64,000 nucleotides of DNA from Candidatus Aminicenantes bacterium. Its GTDB lineage: Bacteria > Acidobacteriota > Aminicenantia > Aminicenantales > UBA4085. Shown here piece after piece: positions 5,593 through 62,625 of the stretch (positions within the stretch are counted from its first letter, which is position 1; every line of letters begins with the position of its first letter). Location of the stretch: NCBI GenBank assembly GCA_022866045.1, contig JALHTW010000049.1, positions 11,041-75,040 of the forward strand, written 5' to 3'. Under the pieces are notes generated by a model. It ran no database searches, was not told the DNA's origin, and saw only the letters and a list, made by a program, of their open reading frames with translations. The position numbers were made by a program, and so were the translations under genes.

Positions 5593-7143
5593 ATGATCGG
5601 AAAAGATCGCATCCAGGAGATTTTACGGGAAAAACGTCCGGCTTTCGAACTGATCGTCCTATGCTTGGCCGCCCTTCTTCTTGGCCTGCTTTTTATTAAG
5701 AATCTTATGTTTTTTCTTCTTTTTTGTGTCGCCGTGGCGGGGCTCGCCCTGTTCTTATGGTTGAGCTCGGTCCGCAAGGAAACGCTCCTCACTTTCGCTC
5801 TCATGATCATGCTCTGGCTCGGATTCCTCCATGCTCCCTTCACTTCGGGCAATTATGTATTCTGGCTGCAGGAGCTGTTGATCCTGGCTTGTTTAAGCGT
5901 AATGATGATGCGGAGAGGAAAACATACGCGGCCGGCGTTCTGGCCCATTCTGATTCCCTACGGAATCGTCTGTTTTATGACGCTCGTACCCACCCTCAAT
6001 AACGAATCCCTCGTCACTTACCTAAACGGCGTGAGACGAATCGCCATCGCTCCCCTGCTGTTCATTCTGGGACAATTGCTGGCCCAGGAGAGATCTTCCC
6101 GAACGGCCTTTCGGGTTTTCCTCTGGACATTCGTCCTTCAGCTTCCCGCCTGCTTGATCCTGATCTATTGGCACACCGGGTCCTTTTTCCAACTTCCGGG
6201 AGCGGACCTGCTGACGGGCACGTTCGGACGCGGCGGGACAGGATATATCGTCATCTTCATGTCCGCCGTTCTCGGTATATCCGTGTGGCTGTTTGCCAAG
6301 CGGCAGCTTTCCTTAAAGATTCTGGCCCTTCTGAGCGGAATCTTTCTAGTGTTGGGAAGATGGTCTGATCTCAAATTTATTTATCTCCTCCTTCCTTTGA
6401 CCTTAGGCGTCGCCTTTCTTCTCGTGGTGAGGCAGCGGTCGTCCTCCAGGAAATGGAAGGCTCTCGTGGCCGAGTTGGCCGGCCTGACCATCCTCTTTGT
6501 CGTCCTTCTCTTGGTTATTTCGGCTTCTTCGGTCCGCTTCCACTCCGGCACTCTTGCAATTTCCTCCATGTTCAACCCGGACTATATACGTCAAGCTCTC
6601 TTTGTCGACTCAAAGGGAATCGTCACCTCAAACGAAGGGCGGGAATTCAGCCGCTATGGGGTTCTCGTCTATGCCTTGAATTTCATCTCTCGCGATTTCG
6701 TGACCCGAGCGGCGGGGCATGGTTTGGGGAGCACCGCCACCGAGGGCGCCTTGGGAGAGACCAAGCTGGGCCAGATGGTGGGCATAAGAAATATTGATTA
6801 TTCAACGCTATCCGTTCTTTTATTTGAGACTGGAATAGGGGGGACGCTTCTCTATCTTGCCCCTTTTTGCATCCTGATGGCGTCGGCTTTCTTTTCTTTG
6901 CGAAAAAAGAAGGTGTTGGGTACGGACCTGGAAATATTGAGCGGCATGGTCGTTCTCTACGGTTTCTGTCTTCTGGCCAGTCTTCCTTACAACGGTTTTG
7001 CCGTGACGCCGCGGGGAGGCGGAGTTTTCTGGCTGTTGGGGGGTCTCTGGTATGCCGCCCGCCGGAAAGCGTTTTCTAAGGCCGAAGGTCTTCCCCATGA
7101 TACTGATGAGCAGGGAGTTCAACATGCTCCTCCCAAATCTTGA
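5593..7143 (+). CDS. polytopic membrane protein, putative O-antigen polymerase/ligase-like (Wzy-like)
   Basis: 516 aa, more than 10 TM segments, glycan-locus context. The AT-rich to GC-rich transition occurs just upstream. Confidence 0.35.
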   Translation: MIGKDRIQEILREKRPAFELIVLCLAALLLGLLFIKNLMFFLLFCVAVAGLALFLWLSSVRKETLLTFALMIMLWLGFLHAPFTSGNYVFWLQELLILACLSVMMMRRGKHTRPAFWPILIPYGIVCFMTLVPTLNNESLVTYLNGVRRIAIAPLLFILGQLLAQERSSRTAFRVFLWTFVLQLPACLILIYWHTGSFFQLPGADLLTGTFGRGGTGYIVIFMSAVLGISVWLFAKRQLSLKILALLSGIFLVLGRWSDLKFIYLLLPLTLGVAFLLVVRQRSSSRKWKALVAELAGLTILFVVLLLVISASSVRFHSGTLAISSMFNPDYIRQALFVDSKGIVTSNEGREFSRYGVLVYALNFISRDFVTRAAGHGLGSTATEGALGETKLGQMVGIRNIDYSTLSVLLFETGIGGTLLYLAPFCILMASAFFSLRKKKVLGTDLEILSGMVVLYGFCLLASLPYNGFAVTPRGGGVFWLLGGLWYAARRKAFSKAEGLPHDTDEQGVQHAPPKS

Positions 7144-13618: not shown

Positions 13619-14283
13619 ATCAACAAAGCCGGGAGAATCCTCTTTCGAGAATCTATCCCCGGGTCCGGCTGGGAGACAAGTCCCAGATCGGCGACTTCTG
13701 CGTCATCGGCCTCCCCGCCGGCGGCCATCAACCCGGGGAAGTGGAAACCATCATCGGCGACGACGCCATCATCCGCTCGCACACCGTTATATATGCCGGA
13801 AACAGGATCGGCTCCGGGTTCCGCGCGGGACACGGCGTCCTCATCCGCGAGGACAACCAGATCGGTCATAACTGCAGCATCGGCTCTCACACGGTGATCG
13901 AGCATCACCTCCAAATCGGGAACGGTGTGCGCATCCATTCCCAAGCGTTCGTCCCGGAATTCACGATCCTGGAAGACGGGTGCTGGATCGGTCCGAACGT
14001 CGTTTTCACCAATGCCTATCATCCCTTGTGCCCGAAAGTTAAGCAATGCCTCAAAGGAGCCACGGTCAAGCGGGGAGCCAAGGTCGGCGCCAATGCGACG
14101 ATTCTGCCCGATTTGGAGATCGGGGAGTTCGCCCTTGTCGGCGCCGGCGCCGTAGTCATTGGCAATGTGCCCGCTTACTCCGTTGTTGCGGGCAATCCGG
14201 CCAAGGTCGTCAAGAAGATCGCCGATCTGACCTGCCCCTACGACTTGATCGATCATCCCTATCCCATGAAACCGGAGAAATAA
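13613..14283 (+). CDS. left-handed beta-helix hexapeptide-repeat N-acetyltransferase (WbpD-like)
   Basis: Repeated [LIV]G-x-x-x-x hexapeptide units, for example [22 protein letters not shown] and IGPNVVFTN. Confidence 0.7.
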
Positions 14284-18982: not shown

Positions 18983-19547
18983 GCCGGAGAACGTCTTCAT
19001 CCATCCCCAGGCTCTCGTGGAGAGCGAGAAGATCGGGCCCAAAACCCGGATCTGGGCTTTTGCCCATGTTTTGAAAGGCGCACGGATCGGCAGCAACGTC
19101 AATATCGGGGATCATTGTTTCATCGAAAACGACGTCGTCATCGGGAACAATGTGGTCATCAAAAACGGCATTTCCATCTGGGACGGGATCTCCATCGAGG
19201 ACGGAGCCTTTCTTGGCCCTAACGTCGTCTTGACCAATGAATTGTTACCTCGAGCCGGCTTCCCGAAGGGACTTGAGCGGACGGTCATAAGGAGGGGAGC
19301 CACTATCGGGGCCAACGCTACCATTATGACCGGAATCACGCTCGGCGAGCACTGCACCGTCGGCGCCGGCTCCGTGGTCACGAAGAACGTTATCCCCCAT
19401 GCTTTGATGTACGGAAATCCCGCCAGGCAGAAAGGCTGGGTATGTATCTGCGGATTGAAACTATCGTTTGATGAAAGGAATGCCGCCGTATGTTCCTGCC
19501 GGAGGGAATTCGTCCTCAAGAACGGCAAGGTCAAGCTGATCAAATAG
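18951..19547 (+). CDS. hexapeptide-repeat (LbH) acetyltransferase
   Basis: IGSNVNIGDHCFIENDVVIGNNVVIKNGISIWDG hexapeptide repeats. Confidence 0.7.
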   Translation: MIKSGVFSMPKPENVFIHPQALVESEKIGPKTRIWAFAHVLKGARIGSNVNIGDHCFIENDVVIGNNVVIKNGISIWDGISIEDGAFLGPNVVLTNELLPRAGFPKGLERTVIRRGATIGANATIMTGITLGEHCTVGAGSVVTKNVIPHALMYGNPARQKGWVCICGLKLSFDERNAAVCSCRREFVLKNGKVKLIK

Positions 19548-36393: not shown

Positions 36394-38214
36394 ATGCAAG
36401 AGCAGGCTGAATCGATAAAACTGAAAATACAACGCGCCCTACAGCTTGGTCGCGCCGTGCGTTTTGTCTGGCAGAGCGCGAAAAGCTGGACAATAGCGAA
36501 CGGGGCTCTCATTGTGGTCCAAGGAATATTGCCGTTACTCCCGCTGTATCTCATGAAGCTCATGGTGGACGCCGTGACCGCGGGGCTGGCGGCTCCTGAC
36601 AAAGGGGCCGCTCTTAGACACGTGCTGTTGCTTGTTGGCTTTATGGGGGCAGCAACCCTGTTTGCCTTCTTGATCCGCCTGATAGCGGGACTGGTTAGCG
36701 AATGGCAGGGTTACATTGTCACGGATCACATGAACGACGTCCTCCTTGCCAAGTCCATTGAGGTAGATCTGGAGTATTACGAGAGTGCGCGATACTACGA
36801 CACCCTTCATCGCGCCCAACGCGAAGCCCCTTATCGCCCTATGAATATCGTTAATGGTTTGGCCCAGATTGGTCAGAACGGAATCTCGCTGCTGGCAATA
36901 GCAGGACTGCTCGTGTCATTTCATTGGCTCATCGCGGCAATCCTATTCACTGCCGTTATTTCCGGGACCGCAGTGCGATTAAGATATACCCGCAAGATGT
37001 ATCGCTGGCAACGTGAGCAGACATCCACGGAACGGCAAGCCGGCTACCTCAATTGGATTCTCACCGACAGCAGCCACGCCAAGGAAATCCGCCTGTTTGA
37101 CCTTGGACCTCTGTTCATGCGCCGGTTTCGCGATATCCGCCGGAAACTCCGCAAGGGAAGGCTGGCCATCACGCGCAGGCGTTATATCGCTGATTTTGCG
37201 GCTCAGACCTTTGCCACCGCGGCCATCTACGGTTCGTATGCTTATGTTGCTTCTCAGGCGGTGTGGGGGAAGATCACGTATGGTGATCTGGTGATGTATT
37301 ATCAGGCATTTCAGCGCGTCCAGGGATTTCTTCAGGGGATATTGGGCAGTCTGGCAGGACTGTATGCAGACAACCTGTTCCTTTCAAATCTCTACGAGTT
37401 TCTTGATCTGAAACGTACAGTCATCGAACCGGCTCATGCCAGCCCTGTGCCTCAGCCGATGCAACGCGGCATCGTGCTGGACCATGTGAGTTTTCAGTAT
37501 CCCACAGGCACCAGAAAGGTTTTTGAGGATATTTCCCTCACCATCCGGCCGGGAGAAGTGGTGGCTTTGGTGGGTGAGAATGGCTCGGGTAAGACGACTT
37601 TGATCAAGTTGTTGTGTCGATTGTACGATCCGACAGGTGGGACCATTACCATCGACGGGGTAGATCTGCGCCAGTTTGAAACAAAAGCGTTAAGACACGA
37701 AATCGCTATCATTTTTCAGGACTATGCCCACTACCATCTGACGGCCCGAGAGAACATCTGGTTTGGGAATACCGCCCTTCCGCCCGACCATGAACGTGTC
37801 ATCGCCGCTGCGCGCCGCTCGGGGGCTGACGACGTCATCAGCGCGTTGCCTCATGGCTATGATACGATTCTGGGAAAGTGGTTCGAGGACGGGGAGGAAC
37901 TAAGCATTGGCGAGTGGCAGAAAGTGGCCCTGGCCCGCGCCTTCATGCGCGATGCACAGATCATCGTCCTTGACGAACCGACAAGCTCTATGGACGCCAA
38001 GGCGGAATATGAGGTCTTCAAGAGTTTTCGCCAACTGGTGTCCGGTCGAACAGCCATCCTGATCAGTCATCGCTTTTCCACCGTCCGGATGGCCGACCGC
38101 ATTTATGTGCTGAAGCATGGAAGCATCATCGAAGGTGGCACCCACGAAGAGCTCCTTCGCGTGGGAGGAACCTATGCCCGGTTGTTCGAAATGCAAGCCC
38201 AGCATTACCGGTGA
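36394..38214 (+). CDS. ABC exporter, fused permease + ATPase (type I exporter, no peptidase domain)
   Basis: Six N-terminal TM helices. Walker A GENGSGKTTL, signature LSIGEWQKVALARA, Walker B IIVLDEPTSSMD. Confidence 0.9.
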   Translation: MQEQAESIKLKIQRALQLGRAVRFVWQSAKSWTIANGALIVVQGILPLLPLYLMKLMVDAVTAGLAAPDKGAALRHVLLLVGFMGAATLFAFLIRLIAGLVSEWQGYIVTDHMNDVLLAKSIEVDLEYYESARYYDTLHRAQREAPYRPMNIVNGLAQIGQNGISLLAIAGLLVSFHWLIAAILFTAVISGTAVRLRYTRKMYRWQREQTSTERQAGYLNWILTDSSHAKEIRLFDLGPLFMRRFRDIRRKLRKGRLAITRRRYIADFAAQTFATAAIYGSYAYVASQAVWGKITYGDLVMYYQAFQRVQGFLQGILGSLAGLYADNLFLSNLYEFLDLKRTVIEPAHASPVPQPMQRGIVLDHVSFQYPTGTRKVFEDISLTIRPGEVVALVGENGSGKTTLIKLLCRLYDPTGGTITIDGVDLRQFETKALRHEIAIIFQDYAHYHLTARENIWFGNTALPPDHERVIAAARRSGADDVISALPHGYDTILGKWFEDGEELSIGEWQKVALARAFMRDAQIIVLDEPTSSMDAKAEYEVFKSFRQLVSGRTAILISHRFSTVRMADRIYVLKHGSIIEGGTHEELLRVGGTYARLFEMQAQHYR

Positions 38215-39540: not shown

Positions 39541-39692
39541 AAAGAGTGTCACGCTTGTCGTTAGCAGCCAAACGTCGCCAAATAGGTGTCAACCTGTTTT
39601 CCGCTGTATCTCGTGAAGTTCATGGTGGACGCCGTGACCGCCAGGGTGTTTACGCTGACCTCTTTGAGAAGCAAGCCCGGTCCTATCGTTAG
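39541..39692 (+). pseudogene. collapsed remnant of a second ABC exporter paralog (5' fragment joined out of frame to last 16 codons)
   Basis: 39601-39643 is ~95% identical to 36541-36582 of the ABC gene. 39644-39692 encodes GVYADLFEKQARSYR*, versus GGTYARLFEMQAQHYR* at the ABC C-terminus. Confidence 0.6.
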
Positions 39693-43245: not shown

Positions 43246-43392
43246 AATTGAGGACGAGGGGGACACGATCCCAAATTCCGTAGAATTTGGGTCATGTCCC
43301 CGAATTCGGCGCCCGGCTGAAAATTCAGGATCTGGAGATACAACGTAATTCATGAATAATTCAGGTTAGTGATTGAATGGGATTCTTCGCTG
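43246..43392. repeat. REP-like palindrome-rich intergenic repeat, copy A
   Basis: Near-identical to 56792-56937. Contains the hairpin ggggacacgatcccaaattc-cgt-agaatttgggtcatgtcccc and the palindrome aattcatgaataattca. Confidence 0.7.
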
Positions 43393-52709: not shown

Positions 52710-52762
52710 GTTCTCATCCATAATGGGAGCAAGGCTGTTCCAGGATCTTCTCCGATCCAGGC

Positions 52763-53959
52763 TTAAAACTTGATTTTGATCCCTGCCCGCAGAGACATCC
52801 CCGAGAAATCGACAGTGGCCTCGCGCGCGTTCTCGACATATGCGTCATGGGCGGGGTTCTGTCTGCGGATGAGAAGAAGGGGAGAGATCGTCTTGCCGGA
52901 CTCCGTGTAATCGTAGGCGTAGAGCTTTCCTTCTTCCGTGACCGGATCGGGTGACTGGGAACTCTGAGAGGTCCCGGTGCCCTCAAATCCTTTGATCGGA
53001 GCATACTGGCCCGTCGCCTCGATAACCAGGGAAATATTCCTGGCAAACGCCAATTCGAACCCCAGGCTTCCCCAAAGGCCGAGGCCGCTCGCGGTAGCGT
53101 CGCCCTCCTGCTCCTGCCAGAATTTGTCTTGTTCGTAGCGGTAATAATAGCCGCACTTAGCGAAATAGTAGGCTACGCCCACTTTGAAGTAGAGGAATTC
53201 GGAGGGATAGAACATGACCGCCAATCTCACCGGTACGGCCTGAAACTTGGGCTTTGTCGTGAACGTGGCGGCGGGGGTCGCCTTGGGATAGGAGATCAGG
53301 CTTTCTTTCGAGCTGCTGAAGAATTCGGCGCCGACTGTGACATATAAGCGGGAGAGGAGTGAAATGGCGATCTCTCCTCCGAAGAGGTAGCTCAGGCGCG
53401 CCGGATCCGTTTCTTTATCGGCCGCGCCGCCCGACTTTGTTTCGTAGAAATCGGCGAACCCCTGGGCTCCCTTGTTCAGATCGCCCCCGAGGGAATAGTT
53501 CCCTCCGGCCATAAGCATGATCGTCCAGGATGCGGGCAGGGAGGTTTCTTCTCCGGTCTCCGTCGTCTGCGTTTCCGAGGAGATGACTTCCGTTCTCCGC
53601 GGCCGTTCAGCCTCTTTCTCTTTTTTAACTGCGGGTTCGACGATCTGAGGTTTCCGTTCCGTTTTGGGGGTCTCTCCGAGCGGAAGGACGAGGCTTTCGT
53701 GGACATACCCTGAGGTCAGACCGCTCTCGTCGGGCTCGAACGTGACCAGGTACCATTCGCCCTCCTGGCGGATGGCTTCGAGGACGGTGCCCTCGGGGAA
53801 TTGACGGATGATGACGCTGCTGATCGAAGGCTTCTGCCGGATGTTGGCCAGCTCGGCCGTGACCTTCAATTTAATGGGAGCGGCGGAGAGGGCCAATGCT
53901 CCTCCAAGGACCACCAAGAATGAAACAAAACCGAACGCTCTCGCTTTCCTCTTGTTCAT
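52763..53959 (-). CDS. outer-membrane beta-barrel protein (putative)
   Basis: Signal peptide MNKRKARAFGFVSFLVVLGGALALSA, alternating amphipathic strands, C-terminal aromatic residue (…GIKIKF). Confidence 0.45.
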   Translation of the reverse strand: MNKRKARAFGFVSFLVVLGGALALSAAPIKLKVTAELANIRQKPSISSVIIRQFPEGTVLEAIRQEGEWYLVTFEPDESGLTSGYVHESLVLPLGETPKTERKPQIVEPAVKKEKEAERPRRTEVISSETQTTETGEETSLPASWTIMLMAGGNYSLGGDLNKGAQGFADFYETKSGGAADKETDPARLSYLFGGEIAISLLSRLYVTVGAEFFSSSKESLISYPKATPAATFTTKPKFQAVPVRLAVMFYPSEFLYFKVGVAYYFAKCGYYYRYEQDKFWQEQEGDATASGLGLWGSLGFELAFARNISLVIEATGQYAPIKGFEGTGTSQSSQSPDPVTEEGKLYAYDYTESGKTISPLLLIRRQNPAHDAYVENAREATVDFSGMSLRAGIKIKF

Positions 53960-54160
53960 AAATCGCCCTTTTATCCGACCCGAATTATAGCATGAAAATT
54001 TGGGGACACAACACATTTCCTCATGAGAAAAAAACTTCAGCCCGCCGTTCCCTTATATCTCATTGTCTGGCGCATTTCAAGGTGTCCGCAGGGGACCGGC
54101 TGGATCGAACTTGCTAATTGACCCGAAAAAGTGTAATTTTTAAGTCCTGGGGAGGCCGAT

Positions 54161-55071: not shown

Positions 55072-55344
55072 ATGCCTGTGCATATCACGGTCAAGGTCCA
55101 GCCCCGCTCATCGAAGCCGGGCATCGAAAAGACCGGAGAGAGAGAGTACAAGGTCCGGGTGAAGGCGTCGCCGGACAAGGGTCAAGCGAATGCCGAGGTC
55201 ATCGAGCTTATAGCCCAACACTTCCACATCCCCCGCTCATGCGTCAAAATTGCGCGCGGCCAGACGTCGCGGATTAAAATGTTAATAATCGACACAGAAG
55301 CTGACAGGACCCGGGCCTCATTTATTGTAAAGGACGACGCATGA
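55072..55344 (+). CDS. DUF167 (YggU-like) protein
   Basis: VKVQPRSSKPGIEK...YKVRVKASPDKGQANAEVIELIAQHFHIPRSCVKIARGQTSRIKMLII. Confidence 0.65.
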   Translation: MPVHITVKVQPRSSKPGIEKTGEREYKVRVKASPDKGQANAEVIELIAQHFHIPRSCVKIARGQTSRIKMLIIDTEADRTRASFIVKDDA

Positions 55345-56651
55345 GCATTTATAACTTCGTCAGCTTCCTCGGCATCTTCGTTCTCGCCTTCATCGCCTGG
55401 CTCTTCTCGAGCGACAAAAAGGTCGTCAATTGGCGGGCCGTTCTCTGGGGTATCGGACTCCAGCTCCTCTTCGCCTTTTTCATCTTCGTCGTTCCGGTCG
55501 GAACCAAGGTCTTCATCTTCATGAACGACGCCGTGGTCAAAGTCCTGGAGAGCGCCCAAGCCGGGACGCGGTTTCTGTTCGGCCGGCTGGCCCTCCCGCC
55601 CGGCACGACGAACGAGGCCGGCGAGACGTCGCTCGGATATTTCCTGATCTTTCAGGGGCTTTCGACGATCGTCTTTTTCGCCGCGCTCATGGGCGTTCTC
55701 TATTATCTGAAGGTCATGCCCTTCTTTATCCGGGTCTTTGCCCGCGTCTTCACCAAATCGATGAGGATCAGCGGAGCCGAAGCCCTCAGCGTTTCGGCCA
55801 ACATCTTCGTCGGAGTGGAATCATCGCTTGTCGTCCAGCCGCATCTGGCCGAAATGACCTTGTCCGAGCTGGCGACGATCATCACCGCAGGCATGGCCAC
55901 CGTCGCTTCCACGGTCCTGGCCATTTATGTCATGTTTCTCCAGAAGCAGCTTCCGACCATTGCCGGCCATTTGATGTCGGCTTCCTTCATCGCCGCGCCC
56001 GCATCCATCGTCATGGCCAAGCTCATTGTCCCCGAAACCGGGAAACCGGCGACGCTGGGGACGGACGTGAAACCTTATTACCAGCGGGAAAATAATCTGA
56101 TTGAGGCGATCATCAACGGGGCGAACTCCGGCCTGAAGCTCCTCGGCGGGATTGTTACGCTGCTGCTTGCTTTCCTCGGGCTGCTCGCTCTTCTCGATAT
56201 CGTCCTGGGCTTTGGCGGCGGTTACTTGAACAAGCTCTTGGGGATTCATTTTGAGTGGTCCATAAGGTCTCTCCTCGGATATCTTTTCTATCCCTTCGCG
56301 GCCGTTTTGGGCATTCCGCCTTCGGACATCATGCCCGTGGCCAAGATCCTCGGAGAGAGGGCCGTCGCCACCGAAGTCGTCGCTTATCAGCATCTGGCCG
56401 ATTTGATGGCCAAAGGAGAGTTGGCCTCCCCCCGCTCGGCCGTTATCGCTTCCTATGCTTTGTGCGGGTTCGCCCACTTCGCTTCGCTTGCGATTTTCGT
56501 CGGGGGAACAGGTGCCCTCGCTCCGAGCCGGCTTAAGGACCTGTCTAAGATTGGATTGCGGGCCTTGCTCGCCGCGACGCTCGCAACCTTGATGACCGCG
56601 GCAGTCGCCGGCACGTTTTTCAACGGCAGCACGATCCTATTGGGCGGGTAA
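55341..56651 (+). CDS. nupC: concentrative nucleoside transporter, NupC family
   Basis: MSIYNFVSFLGIFVLAFIAWLFSSDKKVVNWRAVLWGIGLQLLFAFFIF matches the NupC N-terminal domain. About 12 TM segments. Confidence 0.7.
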   Translation: MSIYNFVSFLGIFVLAFIAWLFSSDKKVVNWRAVLWGIGLQLLFAFFIFVVPVGTKVFIFMNDAVVKVLESAQAGTRFLFGRLALPPGTTNEAGETSLGYFLIFQGLSTIVFFAALMGVLYYLKVMPFFIRVFARVFTKSMRISGAEALSVSANIFVGVESSLVVQPHLAEMTLSELATIITAGMATVASTVLAIYVMFLQKQLPTIAGHLMSASFIAAPASIVMAKLIVPETGKPATLGTDVKPYYQRENNLIEAIINGANSGLKLLGGIVTLLLAFLGLLALLDIVLGFGGGYLNKLLGIHFEWSIRSLLGYLFYPFAAVLGIPPSDIMPVAKILGERAVATEVVAYQHLADLMAKGELASPRSAVIASYALCGFAHFASLAIFVGGTGALAPSRLKDLSKIGLRALLAATLATLMTAAVAGTFFNGSTILLGG

Positions 56652-56791
56652 AAAGTAATTCCCCTGAACTCCCCTTTAACAAAGGGGAGAAATAGAGAAT
56701 GAAAACAAACACCATCTTCTGACTTCTTTTCAAGCTAGAATTATTCATAAATTGCGTCTTTTCCTCGAGAGAGAATGCGCAGATGGCGCCG

Positions 56792-56937
56792 AATTCAAGA
56801 CGAGGGGGACACGATCCCAAATTCCGGAGAATTTGGGTCATGTCCCCGAATTCAGCGTCCGTCTGCAAATTCATGGCGGGAGAGATAACGTAATTCATGA
56901 ATAATTCAGACTAGAGGGGGAAAGAGGGATTCGTGAT
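56792..56937. repeat. REP-like palindrome-rich intergenic repeat, copy B
   Basis: Aligns with 43246-43392 (same hairpin and aattcatgaataattca core). Confidence 0.7.
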
Positions 56938-56975
56938 AATTCTGCCCATCCCCGACGTCTATTAATTTTGAAGGC

Positions 56976-57318
56976 TCTCTTCCATTTTGTGCGGTTAAAA
57001 TGAGGAAGAAGATCCGGGAACAGCCGCAGCGACCGTGGAAGGTTTAGCCTTCTCGAACCGTCCTTGAGGGAACCCGGCTGAGCCGGGCGCCGCGGATGTT
57101 TGAGCTTGCTCTGGAGAAGGGAGACGCCCAGATGAAAAAAATGGGAGTTTTGGGGCCCCATTTTTTAAAACATCTTATTGATGCCGATATCTTTCGTGCG
57201 AGTTCCGCGGCACCGAAAAGGGCGGTGAGAGAACGGCGTTAAAAACCTGGATGGGAGCTAGGCTGTTTCCGGATCTTCTCCCATCATAATTAACCCACCC
57301 AAAATGGAAGAGTACCAA
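56976..57318 (+). repeat. ~345-bp TIR-bounded repeat element (MITE-like or structured leader RNA), copy 1, ending 9 nt before the dprA ATG
   Basis: About 85-90% identical to 61829-62174. Left end tctcttccattttgtgcggttaa; right end ttaacccacccaaaatggaagag. Internal ggggcccc stem followed by a T-run. Confidence 0.7.
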
Positions 57319-57326
57319 TTTGAAAA

Positions 57327-58427
57327 ATGGACGACCGTCATGTTTCTTGGCTGGCCCTGAACCTGGCCCTTTGGGACAGCCTCAAGCTCATGGGGAAGGC
57401 CCTCGGGCGCTTTTCCTCGCCGGCCGAAGCCTTCCGCGCGTCTCATTTCGAGCTCCTCGGCCTCGGTTTTGACGAAGAGCGCGCGAAACGCTTCAAGTCT
57501 CCGAGTCTTGTCTCGCAAGCCGACAAAGAATTTGACAGACTCAAAAAGAAAGGCTATTCTCTTGTAACCTTTGGGGATATCGAATATCCGGCTTACCTCA
57601 GAGAAATATTCGACCCTCCCTGTGTCTTGTATTGTAAGGGACGCCTGGAGATGCTCCAGGCCCCGGCTGTCGCCATCGTCGGCACGCGGAAGCCTTCCCC
57701 TTACGGAAGGGCCGTCGCCGAGCGGCTGGCTGAGGACCTTGCCTCGCGGGGAGTCGTGGTCGTGAGCGGGCTGGCCGTGGGCATCGATTCAACCGCCCAC
57801 TGGGGAGCCCTTAGAGGAGGACAAACGATCGCCGTGTTAGGATCGGGATTGGAAAATTTATATCCAAAGGAGAACCGCAGGCTCATGGACAAGATCGCGG
57901 AAAACGGGACGGTCGTATCCGAATTTCCGTTGGACACGGAGCCGTTCGCCGGAAATTTTCCGCGGCGCAATCGGATTATCAGCGGGCTGGCGCAGGCGGT
58001 CGTCGTCGTTGAGGCCGCCGAAAAAAGCGGTTCCCTTATCACGGCCCGATTCGCTCTTGACCAGGACCGTGAGGTCATGGCCGTTCCCGGGAACATCACC
58101 TCGGACCTGAGCCGGGGCGCGAACAGACTGATCAAGATGGGCGCGAAGCTCGTCGAGGGCTGGGAGGATGTGGCCGAGGAATTGCCGTCTCCTCTCCGCG
58201 AACGGCTTCTGGCCCAACGGGAAGGCGAAACGCAGCCTCTTCCGCTGATGACCGACGAAGAGGCGGCCGTTTATAGATTGTTGAAAACGGATGAGCTCAT
58301 TCATATCGATGAACTTTCAGAACAAGGCCGTCTTTCAATTTCCGAGCTGCTGGTTCTTCTCCTGAACCTCGAGATCAAGGGATTGATCACGCAGAGCCCG
58401 GGCAAGTATTACCAGAGGAGAATGTGA
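57327..58427 (+). CDS. dprA: DNA processing protein A (DprA/Smf)
   Basis: VAIVGTRKPSPYGR...VVSGLAVGIDSTAHWGAL...VLGSGLENLYPKEN...SEFPLDTEPFAGNFPRRNRIISGL is the canonical DprA Rossmann-like domain. Confidence 0.9.
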   Translation: MDDRHVSWLALNLALWDSLKLMGKALGRFSSPAEAFRASHFELLGLGFDEERAKRFKSPSLVSQADKEFDRLKKKGYSLVTFGDIEYPAYLREIFDPPCVLYCKGRLEMLQAPAVAIVGTRKPSPYGRAVAERLAEDLASRGVVVVSGLAVGIDSTAHWGALRGGQTIAVLGSGLENLYPKENRRLMDKIAENGTVVSEFPLDTEPFAGNFPRRNRIISGLAQAVVVVEAAEKSGSLITARFALDQDREVMAVPGNITSDLSRGANRLIKMGAKLVEGWEDVAEELPSPLRERLLAQREGETQPLPLMTDEEAAVYRLLKTDELIHIDELSEQGRLSISELLVLLLNLEIKGLITQSPGKYYQRRM

Positions 58428-60698
58428 ATGGACAAGGTGCTTGTCATCGTCGAATCCCCGGCCAAGGCGAAGACCATCAACCGCTATCTCGGCCCGGACT
58501 ATGAGGTCATGGCCTCGATGGGCCACGTGAGGGACCTCCCGAAGAGCAAGCTGGGCGTCGATGTCGAAAAGAATTTCGAACCCCAATATGTCGTCATCCC
58601 CGAACGGCTCAAGGTCGTCGCCGAGCTTAAGAAAGCCGCCGAGAAGGCCGGCTCGATCATCCTGGCGGCCGACCCGGACCGCGAAGGCGAGGCCATCTGT
58701 TGGCACCTGAGCGCCCTGCTCGAGGACGCGAACAAGAACATCTACCGGGTGATGCTCCACGAGATCACGAAGCCCGCGGTCGAGGAGGCGATCCAGCACA
58801 TGGGGAAGCTCGACCAGAACATGTTCAACGCCCAGCAGACGCGACGGATCCTGGACCGGCTTGTCGGCTACCTCATCAGCCCTCTGCTGTGGAAGAAGGT
58901 CGGACGGGGGCTGAGCGCCGGCCGCGTCCAGTCCATCGCTCTGCGCCTGATCTGCGAGCGTGAGAAAGAGATCAAGGCCTTCGTCACGGAAGAGTATTGG
59001 TCGATCTTCGCTCATCTCGCGGCCTCGAACCCGCCGCCGTTCAAGGCCGCTCTGGCCAAGATCGACGGCAAAAAAGCCAAGATTGAGGACGGCAAGAGCG
59101 CGGAAGCGATCGTCGGCGAGCTCAAAGGCGCGGATTTCATCCTGAACAAGGTCAAGGTCCAGGAGAAGAAGAAAACCCCTCCTCCGCCGTACATCACGAG
59201 CACGCTCCAGCAGGACGCGTTCCGCCTTCTTCACTTCCCGGTCAAGAGGACGATGTTCATCGCCCAGAAGCTGTATGAAGGTCTGTCCATCGGCGAGCGG
59301 GGGCCCGTCGGCCTCATCACGTATATGCGCACGGATTCGGTGCGCGTTTCGAATGAGGCTCAGGCTTGGGCCCGGAAATACATCGAGCAGAAATATTCGG
59401 CCAAGCACGTGCCGGCCAAGCCGCATTTCTACAAGAATAGGAGCCAGGCGCAGGACGCGCACGAGGCCATCCGTCCCACGTCGCCCGATCTTGTGCCCGA
59501 GGCCGTCAAGCCCTATCTCAAGAGAGAGGAATTCAGCCTCTACCAGCTCATCTGGAACCGTTTCCTCGCCTCCCAGATGAGCGCGGCCGTGGTCGAAGAG
59601 ACCGCGTTCGAGATTACGGCCTCGAAATATCTCTTCACGGCCAAGGGCGAAGTCCTAAAGTTTGCCGGGTACTTGTCCCTTTATCCCAACCGGGAAAACA
59701 GCGAGAAGGAAACGCTGCCGGACGCCGCGGCCGGCGAGAAGCTGAGGCTGGCCGGGACGGGCCTCGAATCCAAGCAGAATTTCACCCAGCCGCCTCCGCG
59801 CTACACGGAAGGCACGCTGGTCAAAGAACTCGAGGCCAAGGGCATCGGCCGGCCTTCGACATATGCCCCGATCATCACCACGCTCCAGAACCGCGTCTAT
59901 GTCGTCAAGGACCAGGGAAGGTTCGTCCCGACCGACCTGGGCATGTTTGTCACGGATTTCCTCGTCCAGAACTTTCCCGACCTCATGGAGGTCAAATTCA
60001 CTGCCCAGATGGAAGAGGAACTCGACCGCATCGGCGAGGGCGGCCAGGACTGGCTCGCCTCGCTCAAAAATTATTATGAGAAGCTCGACAAAGACCTCAA
60101 GGAGGGCATGAAGGTCGAGAGCGTCGCGGGAACGGGCATCCCGACGAAGGAGGTCTGCCCGAAATGCGGCAAGCCGGTCATGCTTAAAAGCGGAAGATTC
60201 GGCCCGTTCAAGGCCTGCTCCGGCTATCCGGAATGCGACTTCAAGGAGGACATGATCAAAAAGGAAGTGACGCCGCTCGAGGAGAAATGCCCGGTCTGCG
60301 GCGCTCAGCTCGTCCAGCGCTGGGGCCGGTTCGGCTCATTCATCGCCTGCTCGGATTATCCGAAGTGCAAGTACATTAAAAAGGAGCAGACGGACACGGG
60401 CATCGCCTGTCCGAACGCCTGCGGCGGGACGATCCTCAAGCGCAAAACGCGGCGCGGAAAATTCTTCTACGGCTGCAGCCACTTCCCGAAATGCCGGTTC
60501 GCCACATGGGACGAGCCCCTGACAAAACCATGTCCCACGTGCGGGAAGCCGTTTTTGCTCCAGAAAATTTCCAAGAAGGACGGGACATACCTTCACTGCT
60601 GGGACGAAAAATGCGGGTACCGGGACCCGGCCAAGCCCGAGCCGGCTCTTAAAAAAGAGAAACAGACCAAAGAAAGCGTGCCTCCGGCCGCGGAGTAG
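58428..60698 (+). CDS. topA: DNA topoisomerase I
   Basis: MDKVLVIVESPAKAKTI TOPRIM N-terminus, active-site region ITYMRTDS, and multiple C-terminal C4 zinc ribbons (CPKCGK..., CPVCGA..., CPNACGG..., CPTCGK...). Confidence 0.95.
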   Translation: MDKVLVIVESPAKAKTINRYLGPDYEVMASMGHVRDLPKSKLGVDVEKNFEPQYVVIPERLKVVAELKKAAEKAGSIILAADPDREGEAICWHLSALLEDANKNIYRVMLHEITKPAVEEAIQHMGKLDQNMFNAQQTRRILDRLVGYLISPLLWKKVGRGLSAGRVQSIALRLICEREKEIKAFVTEEYWSIFAHLAASNPPPFKAALAKIDGKKAKIEDGKSAEAIVGELKGADFILNKVKVQEKKKTPPPPYITSTLQQDAFRLLHFPVKRTMFIAQKLYEGLSIGERGPVGLITYMRTDSVRVSNEAQAWARKYIEQKYSAKHVPAKPHFYKNRSQAQDAHEAIRPTSPDLVPEAVKPYLKREEFSLYQLIWNRFLASQMSAAVVEETAFEITASKYLFTAKGEVLKFAGYLSLYPNRENSEKETLPDAAAGEKLRLAGTGLESKQNFTQPPPRYTEGTLVKELEAKGIGRPSTYAPIITTLQNRVYVVKDQGRFVPTDLGMFVTDFLVQNFPDLMEVKFTAQMEEELDRIGEGGQDWLASLKNYYEKLDKDLKEGMKVESVAGTGIPTKEVCPKCGKPVMLKSGRFGPFKACSGYPECDFKEDMIKKEVTPLEEKCPVCGAQLVQRWGRFGSFIACSDYPKCKYIKKEQTDTGIACPNACGGTILKRKTRRGKFFYGCSHFPKCRFATWDEPLTKPCPTCGKPFLLQKISKKDGTYLHCWDEKCGYRDPAKPEPALKKEKQTKESVPPAAE

Positions 60699-60875
60699 CC
60701 GGAGGATGAACTCCTTCCAGGCGAAAATCCCTCAAACTCTACTTCTCAGTCGGCCCAGAATAATCCCCCCGTTTTCCCTTGGGAAAGACGGATCCAGGGG
60801 GATTTGCCCTTTTATTGCGTCTTGTTTTCTGAACCTTTAAAATAACGATGAATCGGATCATAATAGGTCGTAATA

Positions 60876-61769
60876 ATGAGGAAGGAACTCGGAGAATTCC
60901 TGGCTTATCTTCAGCACGAGCGAAACGCGTCCCCTCACACCATATCCAGCTATCGCATAGATCTGACCCAGCTCGCTGATCATCTCCAGGCGAAAAAGAT
61001 CAAGCTGATCCAGGTGGATAATGTCGTCCTCCGCGGCTTCCTTGTCGAGCTTTACCGGAGAAGTCTGACGAAGACCTCGGCGGCCCGGAAGCTCGCCGCC
61101 ATCCGCTCTTTTTTCGAGTATGGCGTCAGACAAAAGTGGGCCGCGGACAACCCGGCCAAAATCGTGGCAACGCCCAGGCTTGACCGGCACGTGCCGGCGT
61201 TCCTCTCCGAAGAGGAGATGGAAAAACTGCTTGAGATCCCGGTGACGGATAACGCTCTCGGTCTTCGGGACCGGGCGGTCCTCGAGCTTTTTTATGCCAC
61301 CGGAATGCGGGTCAGCGAGCTCGTCGGGGTCGATCTCGAAGACGTGAGCTTGGATGAGAAGATGATCCGGGTGCGCGGCAAGGGCAAAAAGGAGCGGCTC
61401 ATACCCTTCGGCCGGAAGGCCGCGGAAAGTCTGGAAGCGTATCTGCGCGTCCGGCATACGTTCCCTTTGGCCCTCGGAGAGAAAGCACTGTTTCTGAATT
61501 ACCAGGGAACGCGAATCACGGCGCGCTCGGTGCAGAGGCTCGCCGGGAAATATTTCAAGAAGGCCGCGCTGAGGAAAAAGATGAGCCCCCACGCGCTGCG
61601 CCATTCGTTCGCCACGCATCTTTTAAGCCGGGGCGCGGACCTTCGTGTCATCCAGGAACTCTTGGGTCACGAGAGCTTGGCCACGACCCAGAAATACACA
61701 CATGTGGACGTCAAGCAATTGCTCGATGTTTACCGCAAGAGCCACCCGCGCGCAGGGAGTTCGGGGTAA
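60876..61769 (+). CDS. xerC: tyrosine site-specific recombinase XerC/XerD family
   Basis: SAP-like N-terminal core-binding domain. Catalytic residues in RVSEL..., HALRHSFATHLLSRGADLRVIQELLGHESLATTQKYTHV. dprA-topA-xerC synteny. Confidence 0.85.
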   Translation: MRKELGEFLAYLQHERNASPHTISSYRIDLTQLADHLQAKKIKLIQVDNVVLRGFLVELYRRSLTKTSAARKLAAIRSFFEYGVRQKWAADNPAKIVATPRLDRHVPAFLSEEEMEKLLEIPVTDNALGLRDRAVLELFYATGMRVSELVGVDLEDVSLDEKMIRVRGKGKKERLIPFGRKAAESLEAYLRVRHTFPLALGEKALFLNYQGTRITARSVQRLAGKYFKKAALRKKMSPHALRHSFATHLLSRGADLRVIQELLGHESLATTQKYTHVDVKQLLDVYRKSHPRAGSSG

Positions 61770-61828
61770 GCCGCTTAAAAGCGCGCCGGCAAGCTTGGAC
61801 GGAATTCGCCATTTAATAAAAGCGTGGT

Positions 61829-62174
61829 TCTCTTCCATTTTGTGCGGTTAAAAATGACGGAGAAGGTCCGGGAATGGCCGCAGCGACCGTGGAAGGTTTA
61901 GCCTTCTCGAATCGCCCTTGAGGGTACCCGGCCAAGCCGGGCGCCGCGGATGTCTGAGCTTGATCCAAATGAGGAAAACGCCCAGATGAAAAAAATGGGA
62001 GTTTTGGGGCCCCATTTTTTAGAACATATGTTTGATACCGAAATCTGCTGTGCGAGTTCCGCGGCGCTGAAAAGGGCGGTGAGAGAACGGCGGTAAAAAC
62101 CTGGATGGGAGCAAGGCCGTTTCCGGATCTTCTCCAATAATCCTTAACCCACACAAAATGGAAGAGAACCAAAA
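61829..62174 (+). repeat. ~345-bp TIR-bounded repeat element, copy 2, upstream of comEA
   Basis: Homologous to 56976-57318 with the same terminal inverted repeats and internal terminator-like hairpin. Confidence 0.7.
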
Positions 62175-62328
62175 GCGTTAACTTATGTCTGCATTGAGAG
62201 CCTTTATCCGTAAACGACGGTATACGCAGCGGCAAATGAGAATTTTGTAACTTGTTGATATCAAAAAAGAAAAAAGCTCGGACCTCCTGGCATTGGACTT
62301 GCATTAATCAGAGCGAAAGGAGGTCCTC

Positions 62329-62625
62329 ATGAAAGAACTCATTTTCAAAGGACTGGCGTTCAGTCTCATCCTCAGCCTTTTTGTTTTCCCTCTTCTCGCC
62401 CAGCAGCAGGCCCAGACCGGGAAATCCGCGGCTGAAAAGATCAACCTCAACACGGCGACGCTCGAAGAGCTCCAGAAGCTGCCCCGGATCGGCGCGAAAG
62501 TCGCTCAGCGGATCATCGATTACCGGAAGCAGAACGGGAACTTCAAAAAGATCGAAGAGATCATGAAGGTCCGCGGCATCGGGGAGAAGACGTTCGCCAG
62601 GATGAAAGACCTGCTCACGGTCTAG
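62329..62625 (+). CDS. comEA: ComEA-family helix-hairpin-helix DNA-binding competence protein
   Basis: Signal peptide, then INLNTATLEELQKLPRIGAKVAQRIIDYRKQNGNFKKIEEIMKVRGIGEKTFARMKDLL. Confidence 0.85.
   Translation: MKELIFKGLAFSLILSLFVFPLLAQQQAQTGKSAAEKINLNTATLEELQKLPRIGAKVAQRIIDYRKQNGNFKKIEEIMKVRGIGEKTFARMKDLLTV

Follow-up and report, generated by a model that had tools for sequence, protein, structure and literature searches.

A 64-kb window of Candidatus Aminicenantes contig JALHTW010000049.1 (the window is the whole 64,000-nt stretch that was analysed) carries two repeats of about 345 bp, one upstream of dprA and one upstream of a comEA-like gene. We conclude, with a probability of about 0.88, that the two repeats are copies of a non-autonomous, ISL3-type MITE (miniature inverted-repeat transposable element) and that they lie beside dprA and comEA by chance. 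The element has terminal inverted repeats (TIRs) and is flanked by 8-bp target-site duplications, its ends are those that bound ISL3 insertion sequences (ISs), and it has dispersed relatives; we therefore assign it to the non-autonomous ISL3-type MITEs. It is small (344 or 345 bp) and contains no transposase or other conserved ORF (open reading frame). An ISL3 insertion sequence proper was considered and rejected, as no DDE_Tnp_ISL3 ORF was found in the element or elsewhere in the window; since ISL3-type ends and 8-bp repeats are present but a transposase ORF is not, the element is classed as an ISL3-type MITE and not as an IS. At the level of sequence it has most of the defining features of a MITE, and we infer that a partner transposase mobilises it. 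The family belongs to the ISL3-type MITEs, had not been described before and occurs in a phylum that has no cultured representatives. A MITE had been one of two readings offered in a first-pass annotation of this DNA, and it is borne out by the TIRs, the 8-bp duplications, the matching ISL3 ISs that carry a transposase, the dispersed copies and the presence/absence polymorphism described below.

Ends, target-site duplications and relatives of the element

The two copies are 88% identical over ~345 nt (E ~1e-125; MAFFT, BLAST and a repeat search), in agreement with the first-pass description of two homologous ~345-bp copies that are ~85 to 90% identical. A repeat search and the nhmmer family model found no copies in the window other than these two. 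The copies, the TIRs of copy 1 and the duplications are as follows.

56973..57316, + strand: MITE copy 1, 344 bp, ISL3-type ends; supported by the alignment to copy 2, TIRs, duplication, nhmmer family model and rod-like fold
61826..62170, + strand: MITE copy 2, 345 bp, between xerC/D and comEA; supported by alignment, TIRs, duplication, fold and nhmmer
56973..56994, + strand: left TIR of copy 1, GGCTCTCTTCCATTTTGTGCGG; also bounds ISL3 insertion sequences in L038, L092 and L099
57295..57316, - strand: right TIR of copy 1, reverse complement GGTACTCTTCCATTTTGGGTGG
56965..56972, no strand: left target-site duplication of copy 1, ATTTTGAA; matches the right one at 7 of 8 positions
57317..57324, no strand: right target-site duplication of copy 1, AATTTGAA
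61818..61825, no strand: left target-site duplication of copy 2, AAAAGCGT; identical to the right one at 8 of 8 positions
62171..62178, no strand: right target-site duplication of copy 2, AAAAGCGT

Both copies start with GG(C/T)TCTCTTCC (GG(C/T)TCTCTTCCATTTTGTGCGG in a longer reading) and end with GGAAGAG(T/A)ACC, this right end being the reverse complement of a near-identical 22-mer. TIRs of ~22 bp can be read from the sequence of both copies. Each copy has its own 8-bp duplication in an A+T-rich target, and these duplications fix the exact ends of the element. The first-pass annotation gave the TIR sequences correctly, and its boundaries shift only slightly: outwards by 3 nt on the left and inwards by 2 to 4 nt on the right. 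Its placement of the copies next to the two genes also stands, with amended distances. Copy 1 ends 10 nt, rather than 9, before the dprA ATG (57327), and copy 2 ends 158 nt, rather than 155, before the comEA ATG (62329).

Ends of the same type bound elements that encode an ISL3 transposase. In L038 (Marinobacter bryozoorum DSM 15401) they enclose a 1372-bp element with the duplication CTAAAACG/CTAAAAAG, and its 417-amino-acid ORF matches PF01610 DDE_Tnp_ISL3 (2.8e-71), PF13542 and PF14690 (HTH_Tnp_ISL3, Zn_ribbon_ISL3). An ISL3 transposase gene stops 17 nt before a perfect TIR in L092, from an Aminicenantes metagenome-assembled genome (MAG; JADHWO01), and another lies between same-type ends in L099, from a Syntrophotalea MAG.

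Relatives of the element are numerous and dispersed. A scan of one genome per species with the TIR query TCTCTTCCATTTTGTGYGG gave at least 115 loci, in Aminicenantes MAGs, "uncultured Eubacteriales" MAGs, Auribacterota, a PVC-group MAG, Trichlorobacter, Syntrophotalea and Marinobacter. Among the matches listed, TIRs in opposite orientation paired to form at least 57 elements of 80 to 561 bp; the flanking 8-bp duplications were perfect in 21 of 57 and matched at 7 of 8 positions in 13 of 57, the duplicated targets were mostly A+T-rich, and single MAGs held from ~8 to at least 13 TIR loci. Dozens of short relatives with 8-bp duplications are intergenic in Aminicenantes and other MAGs. The modal family member is 268 bp long, and the window variant corresponds to it plus an apex insert of 93 nt; this variant was found elsewhere in L139 (88% identical) and, lacking TIRs, in L172. 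The ISL3 shell also holds unrelated interiors of 80 to 162 bp. Genome collections scanned with a 24-nt apex sequence and viral contigs scanned with the TIR gave 0 matches, and plasmid and phage collections searched with the 268-bp element gave none.

Two side observations concern these relatives. Several ISL3-type copies (L085, L109, L196, L221, L058 and L157), together with the complete IS of L092, are inserted in (G/A)ATAAATC or GATTTATC, which suggests a preferred target sequence for ISL3-type copies. The "uncultured Eubacteriales" locus L048 (CAYTTR010000004.1) has the gene order dprA-topA-xerC-comEA, with 52 to 63% amino acid identity to the window; the Eubacteriales label on L048 and similar MAGs may be wrong, and the apparent spread of the core family across phyla is to be read with care.

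The neighbours of other family members have no common function. The 88 proteins flanking 54 other members matched 124 Pfam families, with at most three members per family, and no competence family was among the 25 most frequent. Copies unlinked to competence genes were the outcome that the first-pass annotation had named as telling against its proposal, and the neighbours of the other copies provide it. Scored relative to the element, the flanking genes gave 10 ++, 10 --, 11 +- (convergent) and 7 -+ (divergent) cases, so that no orientation preference relative to genes was found; this random orientation speaks against a role in host transcripts. Among the 240 loci from the TIR and core-motif scans, the 115 TIR-scan loci were covered by tblastn for dprA and comEA. 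Both genes were present only in L048, whose solo TIR lies downstream of comEA.

The dprA and comEA sites of relatives were also compared, with the DprA loci obtained by exact-protein look-up. L002, whose DprA is 99% identical, has a 128-nt spacer of other sequence before dprA and no element; L247 (94%) has yet another insert before dprA and no element. The element is missing at both sites in L126 (DprA 81% identical), L003-6 (80%) and L123 (76%). The order nupC-dprA-topA-xerC-comEA-ham1 is unchanged in relatives without the element. As far as sequence resemblance goes, L126 is the best analogue of an empty site: it reads gacgtctattaaattcgggcatATG without interruption, and the window minus the element and one duplicate reads gacgtctattaattttgaaaaATG, which resembles it. 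L007 (DprA 79% identical) is the sole relative with traces of the element, and it has them in both spacers. One trace, 58 nt of the right end, stops 11 nt short of the dprA ATG; the other, a 95-nt fragment of the left arm in inverted orientation, sits between xerC and comEA. These pieces are decayed copies, from old insertions or from independent hits in the same A+T-rich spots.

Several points weigh against the conclusion that the copies are chance MITE insertions. The duplication of copy 1 is imperfect (7 of 8). A clean empty site was not found in the 99% relative L002, as both L002 and L247 carry other sequences at this position; the L002 spacer differs in sequence, and loss or replacement there is indistinguishable from a site that never received the element. 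The remnants in L007 lie in the same two spacers and are readable as retention at two loci. No ISL3 transposase gene lies within the 64-kb window. Finally, the hairpin described in the next section has conserved loops and a one-strand bias of G-U over A-C that exceed the needs of a passive MITE.

Close relatives differ widely in the nupC-dprA spacer, which is hypervariable (L002, 1279-1415; L247, 110-366; L123, 6596-7000). The L002 and L247 spacers have cgtctatttctaag...ttcgaacctccacc in common and differ by a hairpin-rich insert of ~150 nt, and the L123 spacer (6596-7000) contains a 32-nt inverted repeat. The spacer seems to collect small palindromic inserts. ARAGORN found no tRNA-like sequence in the L002 spacer. 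The short-read contig L001 stops inside the element, 98 nt before dprA, and the contigs of relatives L124 and L125 stop ~220 nt before dprA; these contig ends fit the idea that repeats interrupt assembly at this position.

From what is known of the ISL3 family, a DDE transposase of the ISL3 type, encoded at another place in the genome, would bind both ends and move the element in trans. The window copies would be independent insertions, and their place beside dprA and comEA would be incidental.

The hairpin core and its shells

The whole element is predicted to fold as one long imperfect hairpin, or rod, its left and right halves pairing with each other; the first-pass annotation had not noticed this rod. 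Against dinucleotide shuffles, the fold energy is -170 kcal/mol for copy 1 (z = -10.8) and -177 kcal/mol for copy 2 (z = -12.2); the opposite strand of the window copies folds more weakly by 17 to 20 kcal/mol. The internal features of the window copies are as follows.

57002..57287, + strand: conserved hairpin core of copy 1, arms ~57002-57105 and ~57199-57287; nhmmer model positions ~46-240; covariation
57073..57087, + strand: side hairpin CCCGGC-TGA-GCCGGG of copy 1, in the left arm, -11.4 kcal/mol
61927..61941, + strand: side hairpin CCCGGC-CAA-GCCGGG of copy 2, -11.6 kcal/mol
57106..57198, + strand: apex insert of copy 1, holding an A-run/T-run hairpin (57135-57166); a spurious ORF of 36 codons starts inside it

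The core of copy 1 is split by this 93-nt, variant-specific apex, which is missing from modal 268-bp members and present in copy 2, L139 and L172. The conserved CCCGGC-NNN-GCCGGG hairpin recognised in the first-pass annotation is real in both copies and covaries across the family. The supposed GC hairpin plus T-run of that annotation proves to be a weak stem between an A-run and a T-run (-11.9 kcal/mol, z = -1.1), matched in stability by 27 of 200 shuffles. Two candidate functions for the apex were rejected. The hairpin was not called as an intrinsic terminator by the terminator scan, and its T-run pairs with the A-run; the 36-codon ORF, common to both copies, was rejected as a small protein, since non-synonymous differences in it are numerous and L139 has a stop codon in frame. 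A promoter scan called no sigma-70-like promoter within either copy. An Rfam comparison, proposed as a check in the first-pass annotation, placed the element in no Rfam family: no match reached the gathering threshold over the whole window, and matches on the element region and on four loci with an uninterrupted core were at chance level only (E up to 10 in both cases). The core likewise had no match among Rfam families, plasmid records or phage records.

The pairing of the rod is maintained across the family by changes on both sides of the stems. In alignment A5, which comprises 35 diverse ISL3-type members with an RNAalifold consensus of 51 pairs, 93.3% of cells were paired, compared with 83.4 ± 0.4% when partners were shuffled, and two-sided changes were seen in 36 of 51 pairs, compared with 19.5 ± 2.3 in shuffles. 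Sliding the partners by 1 to 3 columns brought pairing down to 40 to 55%, with at most 23 two-sided pairs. The side hairpin of the left arm (helix 7) had two-sided changes in all five of its pairs across the family. A second set, 65 non-redundant cores from all shells, behaved similarly: 95.1% of cells were paired (84.1 ± 0.4% in shuffles), with two-sided changes in 30 of 41 pairs (18.5 ± 2.0). The first-pass annotation had asked for covariation, and structural covariation exists, as a property of the mobile family and not of the competence genes. In the 65 cores, unpaired columns were as conserved as paired ones (0.80 versus 0.81), and the loops contain the motifs AGCGACCAUUGAAGAUUUAGCC, GGCGUUAAAAAUCUGAA and AGCGAGUUACGCAG.

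One strand also folds better than the other across the family (alifold, -34.5 versus -13.1 kcal/mol). The ratio of G-U to A-C was 32:14 on pairs predicted from both strands and 89:57 on the union of pairs. As a test of RNA versus DNA this strand bias is suggestive only, the copies being related by descent.

The core is not confined to ISL3-type ends. Roughly half of the nhmmer matches end at model positions ~46 and ~240, short of the ISL3 TIRs, and a metagenome scan with the core motif gave at least 120 further loci. The 124 cores with both arms were classified by shell.

ISL3-type shell, both TIRs: 52 cores
ISL3-type shell, one TIR only: 13 cores
Shell starting G(T/G)AAGCATCTCCATTTCCGTGAT: 26 cores
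Neither TIR type: 28 cores
Locus edge, shell not assignable: 5 cores

The second shell type has both TIRs in 14 cores, of which L188, L134, L238 and L210 have perfect duplications and three more have duplications that match at 7 of 8 positions; its cores on metagenome contigs include L134, L188, L163, L238 and L210. The IS66 family is recognised by GTAAGCG ends together with 8-bp repeats (PMC11946415); from its GTAAGC ends and 8-bp duplications, the second shell is probably of IS66 type. No IS66 transposase with second-shell ends was found among the collected loci. The class with neither TIR type includes a third end type, GGCTCTCTGACGAAAAGTGGGG (L217, L193 and L216), diverged versions of the second type, and bare hairpins, for example L172. 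Core identity between shell types had a mean of 0.73 and a maximum of 0.87, compared with 0.72 within the ISL3 type. Because identity between shells equals that within a shell, these values point to exchange of the core between shells rather than to one old split. The ~190-nt core behaves as a module exchanged between MITE shells, as shown for ends and duplications.

Why the hairpin is conserved may be explained in more than one way. Most likely it is kept by element-level selection: the single-stranded fold of one strand, as DNA or RNA, would bring the ends together or recruit a host factor, and such a fold could improve the spread or the tolerance of the element. Alternatively, selection might not be needed, if correction between the arms of the palindrome keeps the hairpin; as the only cause, arm correction is disfavoured by the conserved asymmetric loops and by the side hairpin.

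A further reading, compatible with the MITE assignment, is that the core is itself a functional structured nucleic acid, either a noncoding RNA or a strand-specific single-stranded DNA, with the MITE shells of several families as its vehicles. The core would then be an undescribed module that unrelated DDE shells have repeatedly captured or swapped. We regard this as possible but on the whole unlikely. The covarying stems, the loop columns conserved like stem columns, the better fold of one strand, the occurrence of one core in ISL3-type, IS66-type and third-type shells as well as bare, and the equal identities between and within shells all favour it. On the other hand, the copies show no orientation preference relative to genes, no promoter or terminator was called in the window copies, the core belongs to no Rfam family, and the strand bias shrinks on the union of pairs, among copies related by descent. 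Moreover, imperfect palindromes can stay paired without selection through template switching between their arms, which is established for quasipalindromes, and the quite different interiors found in the ISL3 shell indicate that no particular core is needed for mobility. Were the core under selection, it would exemplify a structured module travelling between MITE families, and this would bear on the origins of MITEs and on why many of them are long hairpins. A covarying core common to several shells is in any case the one unusual feature of the element, and an unexpected one.

Host genes and local signals

The genes and the promoter around the two copies are as follows; the nearest named homologues of the window DprA are in Candidatus Aminicenantes MAGs.

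55341-56651: nucleoside transporter (Pfam)
57327..58427, + strand: dprA (Pfam DNA_processg_A, 5e-82); neighbour, outside the element
58428-60698: topA (Pfam)
60876-61769: XerC/D-type recombinase (Pfam)
62288..62303, + strand: sigma-54-type promoter of comEA, TGGCAttggaCTTGCA; between copy 2 and comEA
62329..62625, + strand: comEA-like helix-hairpin-helix gene (Pfam HHH_3, 7e-25); neighbour, outside the element
After the comEA-like gene in order, opposite strand: Ham1 protein gene (Pfam)

The comEA promoter was assigned to sigma-54 because of the known consensus, TGGCAC-N5-TTGC. Its GG-N10-GC spacing is kept in L007, L003, L123 and L048. The promoter TGGCAttggaCTTGCA lies ~25 nt upstream of a strong AGGAGG Shine-Dalgarno (SD) sequence, an arrangement that suggests enhancer-dependent control of the comEA-like DNA-uptake gene in this clade.

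The copies might have been recruited by the host to regulate dprA-topA-xerC and comEA, as promoter, terminator, insulator or hairpin in the 5' untranslated region. Copy 1 places its rod of 344 nt 10 nt upstream of the dprA ATG, and any transcript from upstream would have this rod in its leader. L007 retains its 58-nt right end before dprA and its 95-nt piece before comEA, and some ISL3 elements have documented outward promoters (PMC9330008). We nevertheless consider recruitment improbable. The element is lacking in the strain with 99%-identical DprA and in four further relatives, and the L007 pieces are decayed, the one before comEA being inverted. No sigma-70-like promoter or terminator was called in the copies, the apex hairpin folds no better than shuffles, and the conserved sigma-54-type promoter lies between copy 2 and comEA. 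The first-pass annotation had proposed that the element donates regulatory signals and that its GGAAGAG supplies the SD sequence of dprA. This motif ends 14 nt from the ATG, is badly spaced and is paired inside the terminal helix, and dprA has no SD sequence in most relatives that are without the element. Together with the missing promoter and terminator calls and comEA's own downstream promoter, these results do not support signal donation.

The conserved structured leader, or riboregulator, of a competence regulon that was the other first-pass reading has two same-orientation copies upstream of dprA and comEA and a stable, covarying fold in its favour, but it is next to untenable given the target-site duplications, the transposase-linked TIRs, the absence of the element from orthologous dprA and comEA loci, the unrelated genes that adjoin other copies in all orientations (11 copies lie between convergent genes) and the downstream TIR in L048. 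A local duplication, or a composite transposon carrying dprA-topA-xerC, would account for two direct copies around a 4.5-kb segment, but is about as improbable, as each copy has a separate and different 8-bp duplication, relatives that lack the element have an identical gene order, the identity between the copies is no more than 88%, and L139, a third copy, is just as distant.

Other repeats in the window were also recorded. Besides the two element copies in this 64-kb portion of the source genome, a 35-nt stretch (52723-52757) matches positions 281-315 of the right arm of the element at 88%; it adjoins the downstream end of a gene on the minus strand (52763-54016) and was probably left behind by an older copy. 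Directly upstream of copy 1 (56738-56907) is a second MITE-like element, unrelated to the first, with 20-nt TIRs, GAATTATTCATAAATTGCGT and ACGTAATTCATGAATAATTC, around an inner hairpin, GGGGGACACGATCCCAAATTC...GAATTTGGGTCATGTCCCC; a partial relative of it, 91% identical, is 13.5 kb away (~43246-43350). Further direct repeats, 14072-14158 / 19294-19380 (70%) and 36541-36588 / 39601-39648 (90%), look like paralogous coding segments.

For annotation, these results mean that the two conspicuous repeats beside the competence genes are selfish insertions and not the signal of a regulon. The family is worth masking in annotation and motif searches in Aminicenantes and related MAGs, where it also appears to break short-read assemblies. 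The TIR GGTTCTCTTCCATTTTGTGTGG provides a handle for finding the active transposase.

Comparison with known systems

Close relatives by their ends are the ISL3 ISs in L038 and L092, which have the same TIRs (0 to 3 mismatches in 22 nt) and 8-bp duplications. Unlike these ISs, which encode a DDE_Tnp_ISL3 transposase of ~417 amino acids, the window elements have no transposase, and their interior bears no relation to that of the ISs.

Neisseria Correia elements, enterobacterial ERIC and pneumococcal RUP and BOX are intergenic, multi-copy imperfect palindromes that form long RNA hairpins when co-transcribed, and effects on neighbouring transcripts have been measured for them. The present family is like them in being intergenic, multi-copy and an imperfect palindrome over its whole length; its ends, duplications and hosts are different. 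REPIN/REP sequences are moved by RAYT, occur in high copy number in intergenic DNA as strand-specific hairpins, and are without a signature of TIRs plus duplications. A strand-specific hairpin as the conserved unit and a high intergenic copy number may be common to both systems. The TIRs and duplications of the window copies tell against REPIN/REP identity for them, and only bare cores such as L172 would fit.

The IS66 family (PMC11946415) resembles the second set of shells around the core, which start with G(T/G)AAGCATCTCC and have 8-bp duplications, and differs from the window copies, which are without such ends. A close parallel to the element as a whole is found in Microcystis aeruginosa, where a 187-nt MITE mobilised by ISL3 has GGCTCTTCG ends and 8-nt repeats (PMC11448079). 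Both are short, noncoding stem-loops with ISL3-type ends (GGCTCTTCG there, GG(C/T)TCTCTTCC here) and 8-nt repeats, and in both cases matching ends are found on elements that bear an ISL3 transposase. The two are from different phyla, and except for the first bases of the ends their sequences are unrelated. Unlike the Microcystis MITE, the present family is longer (268 bp in its modal form, 344 and 345 bp in the window) and has a covarying core that is common to other shells.

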